Origin: Bacillota bacterium
GTDB lineage: Bacteria; Bacillota_I; Bacilli_A; RF39; UBA660
Assembly: GCA_015059495.1 (NCBI GenBank)
Contig: SVAI01000001.1
Coordinates: 565,525 to 629,524, forward strand
Direction: 5' to 3'
DNA length: 64,000 nt
This document shows positions 22,409 to 47,242 of this stretch, one piece after another. The position numbers were made by a program, and so were the translations under genes. Numbering within the stretch: position 1 is the stretch's first letter; each line of letters starts with the position of its first letter. The notes beneath the pieces are model-generated. The model worked only from the letters and a program-made list of their open reading frames with translations, was not told the origin of the DNA and did not search any database.

Positions 22409-22590
22409 AAATATTCTCCTTTACAAAATAAAAAGTGATTCTTATTTTGTAGGGACGGAAAATATTCCGCGGTTCCACCCTACTTATTCTTTTGTAAGAA
22501 TCACCTTAATTACTATATAACTGATAGGTTTCCAAGCCCGTCTTCGTTTGTATGTCTAAATTATAAATTAAAAATTACTAATTTTCAAGA
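22409..22590 (-). promoter_or_regulatory. T-box riboswitch leader of glyQS, with its promoter
   Basis: The minus strand carries the T-box sequence AGGGTGGAACCGCGG (plus-strand ccgcggttccaccct at 22467-22481), about 60 nt upstream of the ATG. A GGC-containing stem-I region is present. The leader is short, about 150 nt, as expected for glyQS T-boxes that lack stem II. The promoter is TTGAAA-17-TATAAT at 22560-22588. Confidence 0.6.
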
Positions 22591-22592
22591 GA

Positions 22593-23009
22593 TTAACTAT
22601 ATTTTCTTGTTCTTTCTCTCTTAGCTTGTTGAAAATCAATAACTTGACCATAAATATGATGACTTACTCTTTCATCATGTTTTCTATCAAATAAATCATA
22701 AACTTTCTTTACATTATAATATCTATCTTTAAGACTTTGTAATATATCATAGCTATTATAATCTCTTTTATAAATATAATCTAATCTAACATTTGCATAA
22801 ATCTTAACTATATAATTACATATACATTCTAAAATATACAAATGACTATAATCTTTATATTCCTCGCTTAATTTACATAAAAAAACATTTGCATTATATA
22901 GATCAGTTCTTAGAACATAATCAATACATTCTTTAACCTTTTCATCAACAATATCATTTCTATATTTACTATATTTACCTAGATAACTAAGCTTTTCAAT
23001 ATACTCCAT
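22593..23009 (-). CDS. Hypothetical protein (138 aa, Y/K-rich)
   Basis: ORF only; no recognisable motif. Confidence 0.35.
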   Translation of the reverse strand: MEYIEKLSYLGKYSKYRNDIVDEKVKECIDYVLRTDLYNANVFLCKLSEEYKDYSHLYILECICNYIVKIYANVRLDYIYKRDYNSYDILQSLKDRYYNVKKVYDLFDRKHDERVSHHIYGQVIDFQQAKRERTRKYS

Positions 23010-27359: not shown

Positions 27360-29228
27360 TTAATTATTTTCAAATACATAGTTAGTCATTTTCTTAGAAA
27401 TAATCCTATTAATAGGAGCTATATATTCTATATCATTGTAATAAGAAATATTAGGTGTTAATACTACTACACTATATTTAGGATTATCTCTTGGAGCATA
27501 CATAACATATGTTGAATTAATGGTCATTAAATCTTTACTAATATAATTTTGAGCAGTACCTGTTTTACCAACTGCTTTTATTTTTTTATCACTATAACCT
27601 AAACCAGTACCATCGTTACTATTAACAACTTGATATAATCCTTCTTGTATTCTATTCCAATACATATCATCCATATCTATATTATCTATTACTTCATTTT
27701 GTTTCTTAATTAAACTTAAAGATAATCTTTTACCCCTACTAGCAATAGTATTAATATATGATGTTAATTCTATAGGAGTATAAGTATCATATTGTCCTAT
27801 AACTAAATTAAGTAATAAATCACTAGCTATCTTTTTACCAGTTATACCTGTACTCTCATTATTTAAATCTATATTAGTTTTACTACCTAAACCAAACTTT
27901 TTAAATATATCTCTATATTTATTAAAATTATCTTCGTTAACCTCTATTTTAATATTAGGATAATAACTATTATTAGTAGACTTAATAGCATTAATAAATT
28001 GATAATAATTAGATGATAACTTTAATGCTGATATATCATCTATATACCCTAATCTTTTAAAAGAACATTTCATAGGTACTTGATATAACTTAACACATGA
28101 ATCATTTATCTTTTTATTTATATCTATTAAATTATTTAAATAACTAACTGTATGTGATGCACCTTTAACTATAGATCCTACTATATATGAAGATAATACA
28201 CTATTAATAGATATATCTTTATTATCTTTATTTAATCCCATCATAGTTATTATTTCACCAGTATTTACATCACTAACTATAATATAACCTTCTTTATAAT
28301 ATTTAGTATTATTTAACTTACTAGCATCAATAAAACTTTGTTTTAATAAATTATAAGCATATTCTTGCATATCTATATCTATAGCAAGCACTATATCTTT
28401 ACCAGGTATATCTTCTTCTAATAAAGTAAGAGTATTATTACTATTAATTTTATATTTACTTTTTTTACCCCTTAATATATCTTCATAATATTCTTCTAAT
28501 CCACTAATACCTACTCTATCATCTATTAAATAACCTTTATTTAAATACTTATCTTTATCTTCTAATCTAATACTTCCAACACTACCTACTATAGATTCTA
28601 TAAAAGAATAATTAATAACTCTTTTATAATCTATATTACATTCTAAACCATCTATTTTTAAATCATTAATATATTTACATACACTATAATCTACATCACT
28701 CTTAATTAATTTAGTATCATATTTATATCCACTAATCATCTTAAAGAATGTATGTATATTAATACTATCCATATCACTATATATATTATCTATATTTAAT
28801 CTATCATAAGTAATATTATATATATCATTCTTATCTATCTTATGATATTTATAATCTTTAATTTCTTCTTCATTTAATAAATCATTAGTATCATTAAATA
28901 ATATATAAAAATCTTTTAATTCTTTAATTGAGGCACTATCATTTAATTCTAATATATCTTTTAACATACACCCAATCTTAAATATATCTATATATTTAGT
29001 ATTATTAATAATTCTATAATTAATATTATATATAGTTTTATTATCTACTAATACCTTATTATTTCTATCTAATATTCTACCTCTTTTATAAGTACCATAT
29101 ACTATATCTTTATATTTATTATTATATAAATTAACATAATAACTATTATTTAATAATCTAATATCTATAACCCTATATACAATAACCAAATATAATAATA
29201 TAACTAATATATATAAATATTTTTTCAT
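27360..29228 (-). CDS. Divergent class B penicillin-binding-protein-like transpeptidase, extremely N/Y/K/I-rich
   Basis: N-terminal TM segment, then KRGRILDRNNKVLVDN (PBP dimerisation-domain motif). SxxK is SIVKG, SxN is SSN, and KTG is GKTGTAQ. There is no PASTA domain. Confidence 0.5.
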   Translation of the reverse strand: MKKYLYILVILLYLVIVYRVIDIRLLNNSYYVNLYNNKYKDIVYGTYKRGRILDRNNKVLVDNKTIYNINYRIINNTKYIDIFKIGCMLKDILELNDSASIKELKDFYILFNDTNDLLNEEEIKDYKYHKIDKNDIYNITYDRLNIDNIYSDMDSINIHTFFKMISGYKYDTKLIKSDVDYSVCKYINDLKIDGLECNIDYKRVINYSFIESIVGSVGSIRLEDKDKYLNKGYLIDDRVGISGLEEYYEDILRGKKSKYKINSNNTLTLLEEDIPGKDIVLAIDIDMQEYAYNLLKQSFIDASKLNNTKYYKEGYIIVSDVNTGEIITMMGLNKDNKDISINSVLSSYIVGSIVKGASHTVSYLNNLIDINKKINDSCVKLYQVPMKCSFKRLGYIDDISALKLSSNYYQFINAIKSTNNSYYPNIKIEVNEDNFNKYRDIFKKFGLGSKTNIDLNNESTGITGKKIASDLLLNLVIGQYDTYTPIELTSYINTIASRGKRLSLSLIKKQNEVIDNIDMDDMYWNRIQEGLYQVVNSNDGTGLGYSDKKIKAVGKTGTAQNYISKDLMTINSTYVMYAPRDNPKYSVVVLTPNISYYNDIEYIAPINRIISKKMTNYVFENN

Positions 29229-29282
29229 ATAATTCACCATTATTAGTATTAAATTATTTACTTATTTAATACAATTAATTAG

Positions 29283-29543
29283 GTGATTATTATAAAAAAT
29301 TTAATTATAAATTATATTAAAAATATGTCCATTAATGATTTAAATAACTTAGCTATCAAACATGATATCTATTTAAATAATAATGAATTAAATAATGCTT
29401 ATAAATTAATAAAGGATAATTATCTAAATATTATAGATAATCCAGATAATTATGATATAAATAATTATAAAGATTATTTTACTAATGATAATTATATAAA
29501 AATAAATAACTTAATAAATGAGTACAAAAAAAGAACATATTAA
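29283..29543 (+). CDS. Hypothetical small N/Y-rich protein (86 aa)
   Basis: ORF with an AGGTGA RBS. It lies convergent to the AlaRS gene. Confidence 0.3.
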   Translation: MIIIKNLIINYIKNMSINDLNNLAIKHDIYLNNNELNNAYKLIKDNYLNIIDNPDNYDINNYKDYFTNDNYIKINNLINEYKKRTY

Positions 29544-29550
29544 TGTTCTT

Positions 29551-31296
29551 TTATTCTATTACAGCTTTAATTCTTCTAACACCTGCAGAAGATGCTTCTT
29601 CTTTAACTATTCTAAAGTGACCAATTTCTTTAGTATTCTTAACATGTGGTCCACCACATAATTCTTTAGAAATGTTATCACCAATAGTATAAACAGTAAC
29701 TATATCTGGATATTTTTCAATAAACATACATTCAGCACCTGAAGCAATAGCTTCTTCTTTAGACATTTCTTCACATCTTACTTCAAGTCCTTCATTTATC
29801 CATTGATTTACTAATTCTTCAGTCTTAGCCTTTTCTTCATCACTTAACTTATGATCACAGTTAAAGTCAAATCTCATTCTTTCATCAGTTATATTAGAAC
29901 CTCTTTGATGTACATCTTTATTAACTACAATCTTTAAAGCAGCATTAAGTAAGTGTGTTGCTGTATGGTATCTAGTTTCAATTTCACTATTACCAGATAA
30001 ACCACCTTTAAACTTACCAGCACTAGCAGTTCTTGATAATTCTTGATGTTCCTTAAACTTTTGATTATATCCTTCAACATCAACTTTTAATCCTTTTTCT
30101 CTTGCTAACTCTTCAGTTAACTCTAATGGGAAACCATAAGTATCAAATAAGTGGAATGCAGTTACTCCATCTATATCATTACCATCTTTAGTTACTTTAT
30201 CAAATTCTCTTAAACCTTTTTCTAAAGTTCTATTAAATTTAATCTTTTCATTTTTTAATCCATCAATAACTACTTGTCTATTATCTTTTAATTCAACATA
30301 GTACTTATCATACATATCCATAATTAATGAAGCTATTCTTTCATCCCAATCACTATTAATATCAATATTTAATTTCTTAGCATGTCTAATAGCTCTTCTT
30401 ATTAATCTTCTTAAAATATATCCTTGATCAGTATTAGATGGTTTAATACCAGCTCTATCAGCAAGAATAAATACAGCAGTTCTCATATGATCAGCAATAA
30501 TTCTCATAGATTTTTCATTACCATAATATGATAAACCACTAATTTGTTCAATTAAATTAATAACAGGCATCCAAATAGAAGATTCATAATTATCTCTTTT
30601 ACCTTCTAATATTGCTGTAGTTCTTTCTACACCCATACCTGTATCAACATTCTTTTTAGGTAATTCACTAATAGTACCATCTGCATGTTTTTCATATTGC
30701 ATAAATACATCATTCCAAATTTCAACCCATCTATCATCTTCAGGATCAAATTTTTCAGGAATTTCATCATCACTTCTAAAATAGAACATTTCTGAATCTG
30801 CACCACATGGACCAGTTTCACCAGCAATCCAGAAGTTATCTTCTTCAGTCATTGCAATTCTCTCTTTTGGTATACCTAAATTAATCCACTTATTATATGA
30901 TACTTCATCAAAAGGTATTAAATCATTACCCTTAAATACAGTAACAGCTAATCTTTCTTTTGGTATATTTAAATATTTAGTTAAGAATTCAAAACTCCAA
31001 GAAATAGCTTCTTCTTTAAAATAATCTCCTAAAGACCAGTTACCTAACATTTCAAAGAATGTATGATGATAACTATCTCCTATATTATCTAAATCATTAG
31101 TTCTAATACACTTTTGATAATCACATAATCTAGTTCCATATGGATGTGCTTGTCCCATTAAATAAGGTATTAATGGTTGCATACCTGCAGTATTAAATAA
31201 TACTGATGGGTCATTTTCAGGCACTACTGGTGCACTAGGTATTTGCTTATGTCCTTTACTTACAAAAAAATTAATATATAAATCCTTTAAATTCAT
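29551..31296 (-). CDS. alaS: Alanyl-tRNA synthetase, short form (581 aa: catalytic + tRNA-recognition + editing domains, no C-Ala/coiled-coil tail)
   Basis: The N-terminus FFVSKGHKQIPSAPVVPENDPSVLFNTAGM, GNWSLGDYFK and RIIADHMRTAVF..LRRLIRRAIRH match AlaRS catalytic and mid domains. The editing-site motifs HTATHLL and CGGPHV are present. The protein ends right after ...GVRRIKAVIE. Confidence 0.8.
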   Translation of the reverse strand: MNLKDLYINFFVSKGHKQIPSAPVVPENDPSVLFNTAGMQPLIPYLMGQAHPYGTRLCDYQKCIRTNDLDNIGDSYHHTFFEMLGNWSLGDYFKEEAISWSFEFLTKYLNIPKERLAVTVFKGNDLIPFDEVSYNKWINLGIPKERIAMTEEDNFWIAGETGPCGADSEMFYFRSDDEIPEKFDPEDDRWVEIWNDVFMQYEKHADGTISELPKKNVDTGMGVERTTAILEGKRDNYESSIWMPVINLIEQISGLSYYGNEKSMRIIADHMRTAVFILADRAGIKPSNTDQGYILRRLIRRAIRHAKKLNIDINSDWDERIASLIMDMYDKYYVELKDNRQVVIDGLKNEKIKFNRTLEKGLREFDKVTKDGNDIDGVTAFHLFDTYGFPLELTEELAREKGLKVDVEGYNQKFKEHQELSRTASAGKFKGGLSGNSEIETRYHTATHLLNAALKIVVNKDVHQRGSNITDERMRFDFNCDHKLSDEEKAKTEELVNQWINEGLEVRCEEMSKEEAIASGAECMFIEKYPDIVTVYTIGDNISKELCGGPHVKNTKEIGHFRIVKEEASSAGVRRIKAVIE

Positions 31297-32081
31297 TTTA
31301 CTTCCCTCTTTCTAGTTTTATCATGTTGTTTAAATATATTTGGTAATAATTCCCTACTAATTTTAATACTACTTAATATATGAATAATACTATCATCATC
31401 TAATGTAAACTCTTGTGAACCTAGCGAACACTTACTAACTTTTACATCTCCATAATTATCATTAAGTCCAAATACAAATTCCATAAAATTATGTTCTCTA
31501 CCATCAAATATACTTAACCCTAAAGTTAAACTATTTAATTCATTAATGTATTTTGGTAAAATTTTAATACTATTACCACTAACTTCATTATCATATAAAG
31601 TTGTAAATAATCTAGCCTCACCACTCACTATTGGACAACCTCTTCTAAGTTCATGATAAGCATCAATAAAATCTACATGTTTTCTTCCTAATTCTAAATA
31701 TGATTCACATATACTATCATCTAAATTAATAAACTCTCTAAATCTTTCTTCAGGATAATTAATACCACCAATATTTCTAAGTACAATTCCACTTTCTTTA
31801 GTATTCTTATAGATTAATCCTAAAGCACTATCTTGGTTATAAATAGTATTTTTTAAATTATGTAATTCTAATTCCATATTTTCTGTTTGATATTCATCAT
31901 TTTTGCTATATCTTTGAATATTAAATTCTTCACATAATCCAAGATCTTTTAAATTACTATAATCTAATAAGAAGTCTTTATATCTATTATTAAATAATTC
32001 TACTAATTCAAATATATTAATATTATCAGTACCTTGTAATTTACTATTATATAATTCAATAAACTCTTCTATATCAATCAT
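31293..32081 (-). CDS. Hypothetical protein (262 aa), translationally coupled to the short AlaRS
   Basis: ORF only. It overlaps the downstream gene by 4 nt and the upstream gene by 8 nt. Confidence 0.4.
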   Translation of the reverse strand: MIDIEEFIELYNSKLQGTDNINIFELVELFNNRYKDFLLDYSNLKDLGLCEEFNIQRYSKNDEYQTENMELELHNLKNTIYNQDSALGLIYKNTKESGIVLRNIGGINYPEERFREFINLDDSICESYLELGRKHVDFIDAYHELRRGCPIVSGEARLFTTLYDNEVSGNSIKILPKYINELNSLTLGLSIFDGREHNFMEFVFGLNDNYGDVKVSKCSLGSQEFTLDDDSIIHILSSIKISRELLPNIFKQHDKTRKREVK

Positions 32082-32595
32082 CCAAAACCTCCAAAATTCT
32101 ATAGATTTGTCTTTTTAAATCTTGTTTACTTGTATTAACTAATTTATAATCAAAATTATCATAATGTTCTAATTCAGTTTCTGTAATATGATGCTGTTCT
32201 TCTACAGTTAAATTATTCTTTCTATCACTAGTTAAGTGTATTGTATAACATTTAGGATATTTAGTTTTCATTAATGTTAATTCAGGTATTAATCTAGCAT
32301 CACAAATAATAACATTTTGATAATACTTTTGATAGATTAATATATCTTCCTTCATTCTATCAATAAATACTGATGGTGATACTAACTTTCTATATTCTTC
32401 ACCTAAGTGTTGTAAAAAAGCTCTAGGTTTCTTCTTATCATGTAAATCTAACATTTCATTAGCCATTAATTTAACATATTTAGAGTATTCAGTAATAATA
32501 CTTCTTTCATTCTTTTCATCATAATATTGTTTAATTAACTTTGCTAATGTATTCTTTCCAACATTTGCTTTACCACCAATAATAAATAATCTCAT
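32074..32595 (-). CDS. Small P-loop-like NTPase/kinase-fold protein with a non-canonical Walker A (GGKANVGKNT)
   Basis: N-terminal glycine-rich loop and a later hhhhD (VIICDARL) Walker-B-like segment. Size 173 aa. Confidence 0.4.
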   Translation of the reverse strand: MRLFIIGGKANVGKNTLAKLIKQYYDEKNERSIITEYSKYVKLMANEMLDLHDKKKPRAFLQHLGEEYRKLVSPSVFIDRMKEDILIYQKYYQNVIICDARLIPELTLMKTKYPKCYTIHLTSDRKNNLTVEEQHHITETELEHYDNFDYKLVNTSKQDLKRQIYRILEVLDD

Positions 32596-32755
32596 ATAAA
32601 TATCCCTTTCTAAACAAAAAAGGAGGTAACGTCAATAATTCCATTAAGGAGTCAATTTATGACGGTACCATCCTTATACACTTAATTAAAATATCGATAA
32701 TAACAATTACCGTTTTAACTCTCCCTAAGCAGCACCAAAGATCATAAAGTTAAAA

Positions 32756-33865
32756 TTACATAAACCATTTATACTTTTTAGCAAAGAACCTATATATAAC
32801 TTTACATAAAGCAATACATGGTGTTGCTAAAACCATACCTACTATACCAAAGAAATGCCCAAAAATCAAGAGTCCAATAATAATTGTTACTGGATGTAAC
32901 TTCATAGTTTTAGACATAACTACAGGTTGTAATATATAGTTTTCCACTAATTGTACTATTACTACTATAACAATAGTCATAATACCAATAAATGTACTTT
33001 GTGAAAAACCAACAATAACTGCTGCTATACCACCAATATATGGACCAATAAATGGAATTAAATCAGTAATACCACATAGTAATCCAAATAATAATGGTGC
33101 TTTTAATCCTAATATAGCAAAACCAACTGCATCACAAACAAATACCATTGAAGCAACAAGTAATATACCATTAACATACTTTCTAACTTCAGTACCTATT
33201 TGATTCAATAAGTCTTTAACATCATTTTCATATTTATCAGGTAATAATCTAATTAAATATGATTCAATACTATTAAAATCAAATAACATATATAAACCAA
33301 TAACTAAACTAATCATAAGTGTTCCAATACCAGAAAAAATAGATGAAACACTATTTAAAATAAACTCTGGTAAATTAGTAGTAATATTATTAATCATATT
33401 TGTTATAGAATTAATTAAATTATTTTGAATAGCACTTAAATCTAAACCTTCAACACTAACAAATACATTACCAATAAAGTTCTTAAAATGATCTAATATA
33501 CTTGGAAATGATGCAATTAAATCATTTAACTGAGTATATATTGTAGGAACTAACATATAGAAAAATAATATTAATAAACTAATAAATATTAAATATACTA
33601 ATATTGATCCTAAACCTCTTTTAATACCATTTTTCTCTAACTTAGTAACTGCAGGATTAAATAACCATGCAATAACAAAACCTATAAAAAATGGTGTTGC
33701 TACTTTTAGTATAGTTAAAACAAATGTAAGTATACCCCATTCTTTAACAAGTAATGTAACTAAAAATACTATACCTACTATCATTACAATATATATTAAC
33801 TTCAATAATTTCTTAGATAAAGTTAATACTTCATTAACACTTTGCTTATCAATATCTTTTTTCAT
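32756..33865 (-). CDS. AI-2E family transporter (UPF0118; YtvI/PerM-like)
   Basis: Eight predicted TM helices and the conserved C-terminal ...GLLCGITDLIPFIGPYIGGIAAVIVGF... Confidence 0.8.
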   Translation of the reverse strand: MKKDIDKQSVNEVLTLSKKLLKLIYIVMIVGIVFLVTLLVKEWGILTFVLTILKVATPFFIGFVIAWLFNPAVTKLEKNGIKRGLGSILVYLIFISLLILFFYMLVPTIYTQLNDLIASFPSILDHFKNFIGNVFVSVEGLDLSAIQNNLINSITNMINNITTNLPEFILNSVSSIFSGIGTLMISLVIGLYMLFDFNSIESYLIRLLPDKYENDVKDLLNQIGTEVRKYVNGILLVASMVFVCDAVGFAILGLKAPLLFGLLCGITDLIPFIGPYIGGIAAVIVGFSQSTFIGIMTIVIVVIVQLVENYILQPVVMSKTMKLHPVTIIIGLLIFGHFFGIVGMVLATPCIALCKVIYRFFAKKYKWFM

Positions 33866-39890: not shown

Positions 39891-40024
39891 TAAATTCCCT
39901 CCTTTATAATTTTATAAGACTCGCCTTTAAGGTGGTATTAACTACTCTTTAACCTTTTCAGTGCGGTTTTAAAGAAAGCCTTTAAAACATATAAAATTCT
40001 ATCAAATATCTAACAAAAAGTCAA
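39891..40024 (-). promoter_or_regulatory. rplU promoter (TTGACT-17-TAGAAT at 39996-40024) plus a structured leader of about 100 nt (possible L21-leader autoregulatory element)
   Basis: Near-consensus sigma-A promoter. The leader ggctttctttaaaaccgcactgaaaaggttaaagagtagttaataccaccttaaaggcgagtc is GC-enriched and stem-forming, ahead of an AGGAGGG RBS. Firmicute rplU operons are known to carry an L21 leader. Confidence 0.4.
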
Positions 40025-47165: not shown

Positions 47166-47242
47166 GTTTCCGTAGCTCAGCTGGATAGAGCAATCGCCTT
47201 CTAAGCGATCGGTCAGGTGTTCGAATCACCTCGGAAACACCA
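47166..47242 (+). tRNA. tRNA-Arg (anticodon UCU), with genomically encoded CCA
   Basis: Cloverleaf read by hand. Acceptor stem gtttccg/cggaaac, D-arm gctc-agctggata-gagc, anticodon stem atcgc/gcgat with loop cUUCUaa, variable loop cggtc, T-arm aggtg-ttcgaat-cacct, discriminator A, CCA. Confidence 0.85.

Follow-up and report, generated by a model that had tools for sequence, protein, structure and literature searches.

A short alanyl-tRNA synthetase in a probable housekeeping operon with a T-box-derived leader from an uncultured, AT-rich Bacilli gut lineage

Introduction

Alanyl-tRNA synthetase (AlaRS) has been described as a four-domain prototype throughout biology, the exceptions being the mitochondrial AlaRS of Caenorhabditis elegans, which has a residual C-Ala domain, and the mini-AlaRS of Tupanvirus, which has neither an editing domain nor C-Ala (PMC8887476, PMC10036535). 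In bacteria, C-Ala is considered necessary for dimerization, tRNA binding and efficient charging (PMC8583063, PMC8887476). With regard to gene regulation, a T-box with a GCU specifier has been established for alaS of Clostridium acetobutylicum (PMC4695836). Here, we describe a short AlaRS of 581 amino acids (aa) and the genes around it in a stretch of 64,000 nt from a Bacillota bacterium (contig SVAI01000001.1, positions 565,525 to 629,524), the whole of which is referred to below as the window. The alaS gene is the last of three overlapping genes on the minus strand, the first of which encodes a 173-aa P-loop kinase and the second a 262-aa protein. We consider it probable (about 0.78) that the three genes form the housekeeping alaS operon of a gut lineage of uncultured, AT-rich Bacilli, one that is equipped with a T-box, carries the kinase gene as a passenger and is interrupted by an inserted 262-aa gene.

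A family of short bacterial AlaRSs (NF002436, or PRK01584) is curated in NCBIfam, and thus this type of enzyme is already known to the databases; no biochemical study of it was found in the searched literature. The AlaRSs of spirochaetes presumably belong to the same family.

The short AlaRS of the window

The kinase gene (32074-32595), the 262-aa gene (31293-32081) and alaS (29551-31296) follow one another on the minus strand. Direct reading of the junctions confirmed the overlaps of 8 and 4 nt that had been proposed in a preliminary description of this DNA: the kinase and 262-aa genes meet in TTGGATGATTGATATA with the 8-nt overlap ATGATTGA, and the 262-aa gene and alaS meet in TAAAATGAATTT with the 4-nt overlap ATGA.

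The 581-aa protein is annotated by NCBI PGAP as alanine--tRNA ligase (MBE6158748.1). Its residues 2-581 matched positions 5-593 of NF002436, a 595-position equivalog model of that name, with 770.3 bits (cutoff 529), and the model of canonical AlaRS, TIGR00344, scored it at 604.9 bits. Pfam assigned residues 3-429 to tRNA-synt_2c (PF01411, E 7e-141), covering only model positions 2-436 of 552, and residues 533-576 to tRNA_SAD (PF07973, E 9e-19), with no match to DHHA1 in the protein. The N-terminal 420 residues could be aligned to the catalytic fragments of the Aquifex aeolicus (E 1e-102, residues 7-426 of that enzyme) and Escherichia coli (E 1e-98) AlaRSs, with the motifs conserved. These include CIR (residues 63-65), FFEMLGNWSLGDYFK (80-94) and NVDTGMGVER (216-225) for aminoacylation, PSN (286-288) and DTYGFP (385-390) for acceptor-stem recognition, and HTATH (444-448), QRGS (464-467) and CGGPH (547-551) for editing; the protein ends with GVRRIKAVIE (572-581). 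We take residues within PSN and DTYGFP to be the counterparts of E. coli Asn303 and Asp400. On this evidence, the enzyme is predicted to keep the class II catalytic core, the domain that recognizes the G3:U70 pair of the acceptor stem, and an editing core, in agreement with what had been read from the sequence at first. The aminoacylation and tRNA-recognition domains span residues 1 to ~429 (nt 30010-31296, minus strand), followed by a linker of 21 aa and by an AlaX-S-like editing core at residues ~440-581 (nt 29554-29979), which is judged from its HxxxH and CxxxH motifs to be of the zinc-binding type. The AlaXM model NF040865 also matched this part (residues 442-579 to model positions 96-232), scoring 81.2 bits where 300 is the cutoff; the similarity is that of the AlaRS editing core, and the protein is thus not placed among free-standing AlaX proteins.

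The extent of the shortening could be measured against an 897-aa AlaRS found in a related genome (locus L012). Residues 3-422 and 444-579 of the short enzyme corresponded to residues 9-430 and 559-692 of the long one, leaving ~107 internal and 205 C-terminal residues without an equivalent, and residues 431-558 and 693-897 of the long enzyme had no counterpart in the 581-aa protein or elsewhere in the window. The two truncated regions had been located correctly before, with sizes estimated at ~140 and ~170 residues that differ slightly from those measured. The internal gap coincides with positions ~437-552 of Pfam tRNA-synt_2c and, judging from established structures, we take it to be the beta-barrel part of the editing domain. 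The enzyme would accordingly be devoid of the beta-barrel subdomain, the coiled coil and the C-Ala (DHHA1) domain, so that it most likely works without C-Ala-mediated oligomerization or binding of the tRNA elbow.

The preliminary description had named a sequencing or assembly frameshift as an event that would refute it, and such an error, like any truncation of a full-length alaS, can be ruled out with a residual probability that we regard as negligible. Eleven contigs from independent projects (JGI, ENA, NCBI and Logan assemblies), up to 1.26 Mb long, encode the identical 581-aa protein. The 310 nt between the alaS stop codon and the next gene contain stop codons in all three frames, and tblastn with the beta-barrel and C-Ala segments of the long AlaRS gave no match in the window. 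Almost all of the closest 120 AlaRS homologs (82-100% identity) were 578-585 aa long, the exceptions being one fragment of 535 aa and two kinase fusions of 801-802 aa, and in 70 related species the AlaRS had 579-595 aa and the same end motif, with tails of 0-5 residues. A hidden C-terminus of the AlaRS was likewise excluded by the downstream stops, the blank tblastn search and the 11 identical copies.

Conservation of the locus in related species

For a survey of synteny, one genome per GTDB species was scanned for relatives of the 173-aa protein, and 80 loci were kept. The metagenome-assembled genomes (MAGs) concerned are labeled Bacilli, Tenericutes, Erysipelotrichaceae, 'Mycoplasma sp.' or Candidatus Ventrenecus; MAG names for this lineage also include 'Firmicutes/Bacilli bacterium' and Candidatus Coprovivens, and we take the lineage to be GTDB order RF39. 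An AlaRS of 579-595 aa followed the kinase directly in 70 of the 80 loci, at distances from -16 to +24 nt, and 41 of these 70 direct pairs showed start/stop overlaps of -4 nt (22 loci) or -1 nt (19 loci). One further locus had the 897-aa AlaRS after the kinase (-4 nt), one an AlaRS cut by the contig end, and two a cytidylate kinase gene (cmk) between the kinase and a short AlaRS; four had the kinase without an adjacent alaS, and two were not evaluable. Thus, alaS lay directly downstream of the kinase gene in 72 of the 78 evaluable loci and behind an inserted cmk in two more. The short AlaRS is therefore the norm in this clade, being present in at least 70 related species.

The order AI-2E family transporter, kinase, alaS is conserved across the relatives, and in locus L009 alaS is followed by genes for IreB, RuvX, DUF1292 and YceG/MltG. 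We take such an arrangement, with the AI-2E transporter upstream and IreB-RuvX-DUF1292-YceG downstream, to be the alaS neighborhood of Bacillus subtilis as well. The long AlaRS of L012, which has DHHA1, occupies the same slot after the transporter and the kinase (L012/L087, 2673-5366; MAG Lapin-017 bin10, GCA_947632685.1). In comparisons with close relatives, the ratio of nonsynonymous to synonymous substitution rates (dN/dS) of alaS was 0.0-0.23. Synteny, the T-box considered below and this strong purifying selection together indicate a housekeeping alaS rather than a recruited paralog. Of the two possibilities raised in the preliminary description, that of a minimal housekeeping enzyme is thus upheld by the NF002436 match, the Ala T-box, the neighborhood, the slot shared with the long AlaRS and the dN/dS values, except that it is the clade norm and nothing special to this organism. 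The other, a paralog recruited together with two partner proteins, found no support: when the proposed three-gene unit was compared among genomes, only the pairing of the kinase with alaS proved to be conserved, and the 262-aa gene was restricted to one genus-level clade.

The leader of the operon

The cluster had been thought to lack a T-box leader. However, the 160-nt spacer upstream of the kinase gene belongs to a leader (32596-32833, minus strand) which, to judge from its sequence, predicted fold and conservation in relatives, is T-box-derived and specific for alanine. It contains a GCU (Ala) specifier at 32731-32733, identified by alignment of leaders, and a 13-mer T-box sequence, AAGGAUGGUACCG, at 32663-32675, of which the window holds no other exact copy. 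The 3' side of the antiterminator, CUCCU, lies at 32647-32651. In the predicted fold, the arms AGGAUGGUACCGUCA (32660-32674) and UGACGUUACCUCCUU (32620-32634) form a terminator hairpin, which is followed by a U-run (32616-32621). The UGGU bulge fits the A73 discriminator expected for tRNA-Ala, and the leader is predicted to act as a riboswitch.

Comparison with relatives supports this assignment. In 52 related loci, L012 with its long AlaRS among them, the 11-mer GGATGGTACCG is located 61-79 nt ahead of the ATG of the kinase gene, and at least 41 species of the synteny survey have an Ala T-box in front of the kinase gene and alaS. Across an alignment of 25 leaders, GCT was invariant and was followed by a purine in 24 (C in L067), AAGGATGGTACCG and CTCCT were invariant too, and the upper antiterminator helix showed 13 double compensatory changes. 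The leader of L009 matched the full Rfam model RF00230 with 73.1 bits (E 2.5e-16), and no leader of a relative reached the gathering threshold of 93 bits. The glyQS T-box reported for the same window in the preliminary description was recovered (GGGUGGAACCGCGG, 22448-22597, minus strand), with 50.3 bits (E 1e-8) and hence also under the gathering score. T-boxes of this AT-rich lineage fall systematically below the Rfam threshold.

A promoter-like site (TTGATT, a 17-nt spacer and TG-TATAGT; 32841-32869, minus strand) was found by consensus scan within the 3' end of the AI-2E transporter gene, and is a weak candidate for the start of the leader transcript; in the same scan, promoter-like matches in this region were in no excess over shuffled sequence.

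The 173-aa kinase

The 173-aa protein had been counted as one of two unknown proteins and its P-loop described as a degenerate Walker A motif, and neither statement could be maintained. Its residues 1-169 matched phrog_139, deoxynucleoside monophosphate kinase, with an E-value of 4e-25. The Pfam family DNMK (PF21448) gave 23.7 bits, below the cutoff of 27.1, for the protein itself; among 24 homologs, 23 matched this family (best E 4e-18) and 15 matched animal-type phosphomevalonate kinase (PMVK). When the profile of the kinase family was compared with the PDB, PMVK (7xnd and 3ch4, 1.6e-7) and T4 gp1 (1dek, 6.7e-7) were found. The AlphaFold2 model was of high predicted confidence (predicted local distance difference test, pLDDT, 92.5), and its top Foldseek matches were the same two PMVK structures (TM 0.71-0.75). 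The P-loop GGKANVGKNT occupies residues 7-16, with G8, G13 and K14 invariant, and profile alignments showed loops of the GxxxxGK[D/N]T type in T4 gp1 (GVKRSGKDT) and PMVK (GKRKSGKD) as well, so that this is the normal P-loop of the family and no degenerate form. On the basis of these profile and model comparisons, the protein is best assigned to the P-loop kinases of the T4-Dnmk/PMVK family, and its substrate is probably a small molecule of the nucleotide class. No close phage homolog was found among GenBank phages, and a metagenome scan anchored on the kinase yielded two loci only.

Nucleotide kinases of another kind were also seen with alaS. A separate cytidylate kinase gene lies between the Dnmk-like kinase and alaS in L080 (6191-6841) and L090 (5897-6544). 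Pig-gut relatives have, at another locus (L008, 6001-8406), an in-frame fusion of a cytidylate kinase to the N-terminus of a short AlaRS (P0024, 801 aa; P0022, 802 aa), represented by 21 member sequences and three contigs. These insertions and the fusion suggest that the operon gathers nucleotide-kinase genes.

The 262-aa gene

Relatives of the 262-aa protein were rare, amounting to five clusters among 5.8 billion proteins. A profile search of 1.8 billion representatives gave 16 matches, four of which had 254-278 aa and E-values of 1e-31 to 1e-50. Three of these four could be traced to contigs, and in all three the gene lay between the kinase gene and alaS with the same overlaps; more distant members were on short contigs without kinase or alaS neighbors. 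The gene was absent from all of the 78 other evaluable loci of species representatives, and no paralog was present in the window or in 92 related loci. The protein had no match in Pfam, NCBIfam, PHROGs, PADLOC, PDB sequences or GenBank phages, and a comparison of 15 family members with the defense models of PADLOC-DB gave nothing significant (a single match, E 0.0077). Its AlphaFold2 model was poor (pLDDT 48), with no Foldseek match at E < 0.3; folds of the PUR-alpha/Whirly type were the faint top matches of this model and were not considered trustworthy. We rejected the ideas that the protein represents the beta-barrel or C-Ala domain detached from AlaRS, or that it is related to the kinase, since hhalign gave probabilities of at most 0.3%.

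The divergence of the gene differs from that of its flanks. The alleles of L093 (1322-2104), L095 (5001-5792) and L094 (440-1276) share 37%, 33% and 31% amino acid identity, respectively, with that of the window, whereas the neighboring proteins share 95% (transporter) and 97% (kinase) in L093, 88% (kinase) and 86% (AlaRS) in L095, and 82% (kinase) and 94% (AlaRS) in L094. Nucleotide identity drops from 90-98% to 50-60% at the first codon of the open reading frame (ORF) and recovers within its last 15-65 nt. Between allele classes, dN was 0.62-0.77 as compared with 0.015-0.11 in the flanks, and dN/dS was near 1. On the other hand, close alleles (88-92% identical) had a dN/dS of 0.33-0.36 against 0.0-0.15 in the flanks, as would a coding gene under weaker constraint than its neighbors. 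In L093, dS was 0.67 in the gene and 0.19-0.21 in the flanks, an excess of more than threefold that points to old allele classes moved by recombination, not to simple drift. The ORF was intact in every allele (254-282 aa) despite a background of 77% A+T, and some positions were conserved throughout the family. Judged by these patterns, it appears to be a recently inserted, genus-level accessory gene that diversifies rapidly.

Other features of the window

The window has a G+C content of ~25%, and nearly all of its genes are on the minus strand. In the spacer between alaS and a penicillin-binding-protein gene (27360-29240), an 86-aa ORF rich in Asn, Tyr and Ile runs convergently to alaS (29283-29543, plus strand). 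It had no family match; its counterpart is annotated as a 72-aa gene in L001/L002, and L095 has it with 71% conservation. Among the promoter-like sites of the region, the best (TGGACA, a 16-nt spacer and TATAAT; 11 of 12 matches) is located at 29304-29331 on the minus strand, just upstream of the penicillin-binding-protein gene, and no intrinsic terminator was detected between alaS and this site. In addition, a ribosomal protein L21 leader (39907-39978, minus strand, 48.4 bits) precedes the rplU-Prp-rpmA genes, and a lone tRNA-Arg(TCT) gene is found at 47166-47242 on the plus strand, opposite to nearly all genes.

Discussion

If the locus is a housekeeping alaS operon, its transcription would start inside or just past the AI-2E transporter gene and proceed through the T-box-derived leader, in which uncharged tRNA-Ala would pair with the GCU specifier by its anticodon and with the UGGU bulge of the antiterminator by its 3' end (A73-CCA). 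This pairing would stabilize the antiterminator over the terminator, and the operon would be read through when charging of tRNA-Ala drops. The three ORFs would then undergo coupled translation via the ATGATTGA and ATGA overlaps. The AlaRS would charge tRNA-Ala by acceptor-stem contacts alone and clear Ser-tRNA-Ala and Gly-tRNA-Ala in cis. The Dnmk/PMVK-type kinase would travel with alaS across the clade as an operon passenger, and the 262-aa gene would be a recent insertion at the genus level that encodes a real protein and whose alleles are swapped by recombination.

It should be noted that several observations weigh against this interpretation. Given the published requirement for C-Ala (PMC8583063, PMC8887476), the full activity of an enzyme without this domain is something that we infer. 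Between the short AlaRS and the long enzyme in the same slot, identity is only 39-41%, as compared with 54-71% for other short AlaRSs at comparable kinase divergence, and truncation in situ and replacement of the gene are thus indistinguishable. Neither a second alaS nor a C-Ala remnant was found in a search of the 64-kb window. The leader of the window did not match RF00230 even at E <= 10. The Stem I motifs AGAGAG and GGUGNRA, intact in most relatives, are lost in the window species and in L015, where the Stem I platform is replaced by AAAAAG and a short hairpin; the decayed region shares sequence with the final codons of the AI-2E transporter gene. The decay of Stem I accounts for the Rfam miss, and a riboswitch deprived of the contacts that the AG bulge and the distal loop make with the tRNA elbow may be impaired or operate in another way. 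Finally, among T-box regulons it is unusual to find a kinase controlled by an Ala T-box, and the term operon passenger may understate its role.

The competing explanations concern one or another of the three genes. It might be supposed that the short AlaRS has been recruited, as a paralog and together with its neighbors, for trans-editing or another tRNA-dependent chemistry, with a canonical alaS elsewhere in the genome. The sequence that was read comprised the window and flanks of up to 10 kb of related contigs, which leaves room for a second alaS, and the tight coupling of the kinase and alaS in many species, as well as the ~40% identity to the long AlaRS of a relative, could be read in the same way. 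However, the protein matches the alanine--tRNA ligase equivalog model over its full length, its motifs for aminoacylation, G3:U70 recognition and editing are all intact, and its AlaXM score is far under the cutoff (81 versus 300). The gene stands behind an Ala T-box leader typical of housekeeping aminoacyl-tRNA synthetase genes, in a canonical alaS neighborhood and in the slot that a full-length AlaRS fills in L012, and it is under very strong purifying selection, while the supposed 262-aa partner is missing from all the other species-representative loci that could be evaluated. Recruitment is thus very unlikely in our view. For the 262-aa ORF, one could propose a non-functional, drifting spacer whose frame is kept open only to hand ribosomes over to alaS. 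Such a spacer would fit the lack of a detectable domain, the poor structure prediction, the extreme amino acid divergence with a dN/dS near 1 between allele classes, and the return of nucleotide similarity ~15-65 nt before the stop codon, which is the ribosome-binding region of alaS. It would not fit the dN/dS of close alleles, which is 0.33-0.36 and not 1, the intact ORF of 254-282 aa in a 77% A+T background rich in stop triplets, the positions conserved family-wide, or the dS of L093, which points to imported old alleles; moreover, most relatives join the kinase directly to alaS and need no spacer. We regard this idea as improbable.

The kinase could be a true partner of AlaRS, acting on tRNA-Ala, on (mis)acylated tRNA-Ala or on an alanine-linked metabolite, which seems doubtful to us, if slightly less so than the spacer. 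Adjacency to alaS, direct or via cmk, in 74 of the 78 evaluable loci, the -4 or -1 nt overlaps in 41 of 70 direct pairs, the persistence of the pairing with short and long AlaRSs alike and the Ala T-box that co-regulates the two genes in at least 41 species all speak for such a role, as does a weak likeness to P-loop kinases that bind tRNA (PSTK by Foldseek, E 1.6e-4; KTI12 by Pfam in two of 24 members). Yet the best matches in sequence and fold are small-molecule kinases (dNMP kinase, PMVK, gluconate kinase and APS kinase), and 173 aa make up a bare kinase core with no added tRNA-binding domain. The plain cytidylate kinase that stands beside it or is fused to AlaRS in relatives fits a grouping of nucleotide kinases, and the kinase gene of four genomes has no alaS beside it.

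In addition to the housekeeping reading, we considered more broadly whether the operon goes beyond housekeeping, in that the kinase serves AlaRS or tRNA-Ala as a dedicated partner, that diversifying selection acts on the 262-aa gene as a cassette, or both; although we do not favor it, this has an appreciable minor chance of being correct. The former part rests on a kinase that would be translationally coupled to AlaRS and that stands under an Ala T-box across an order-level clade; if it holds, the kinase may act on (mis)acylated tRNA-Ala or an alanine-linked metabolite. If the latter part holds, an immunity, defense or interaction factor would be lodged in an essential, riboswitch-controlled operon, where it would be hard to silence or lose, and ancient allele classes of the 262-aa gene would be swapped between near-identical strains.

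As for significance, since the databases recognize the family, the short AlaRS draws attention to an under-studied class of enzymes rather than being a discovery. A large clade of gut Bacilli in which AlaRS has neither C-Ala nor the beta-barrel nevertheless offers a natural test of the C-Ala requirement. More original are the control of a nucleotide-kinase-like gene by an Ala T-box, the location of a hypervariable gene within an essential operon, and a T-box without an elbow platform ahead of an AlaRS without an elbow-binding domain. The last of these is a coincidence worth recording: the leader has lost its platform for the tRNA elbow, and the AlaRS that it governs has lost the C-Ala domain that binds the elbow. 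What remains of interest is how a bacterial AlaRS works biochemically without C-Ala and beta-barrel, together with the strongly conserved coupling of alaS with the kinase under an Ala T-box and the hypervariable 262-aa cassette.

Comparison with known systems

The canonical AlaRSs of E. coli and A. aeolicus (~875 aa) have the class II core, the G3:U70 residues and the HxxxH/CxxxH site in common with the window enzyme, and differ from it by the beta-barrel part and the coiled coil/C-Ala tail (~107 and 205 residues). The mitochondrial AlaRS of C. elegans and the AlaRS of Tupanvirus resemble it in being C-Ala-less and in charging via the acceptor stem (PMC8887476, PMC10036535). In contrast to the Tupanvirus enzyme, that of the window retains the editing core; in contrast to both, its host is a free-living bacterium, presumably with normal L-shaped tRNAs, and no homology is evident beyond that of the general AlaRS family.

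With the alaS T-box of the C. acetobutylicum type, the leader has in common a GCU specifier with a purine after it, the UGGU-ACC antiterminator bulge and the terminator/antiterminator switch ahead of alaS (PMC4695836), whereas it has no Stem II, its Stem I is decayed and the first gene behind it encodes a kinase. That kinase has the GxxxxGK[D/N]T P-loop and the predicted fold of T4 gp1 (PF21448, 1dek) and animal PMVK (PF04275, 3ch4 and 7xnd); unlike theirs, its gene is a chromosomal one in a Bacilli housekeeping operon. Finally, the members of the NF002436 short family have the same architecture, with catalytic and recognition domains, a short linker and an editing core and without C-Ala. The window enzyme is structurally no different from them and represents a new lineage-level member from an uncultured Bacilli clade.

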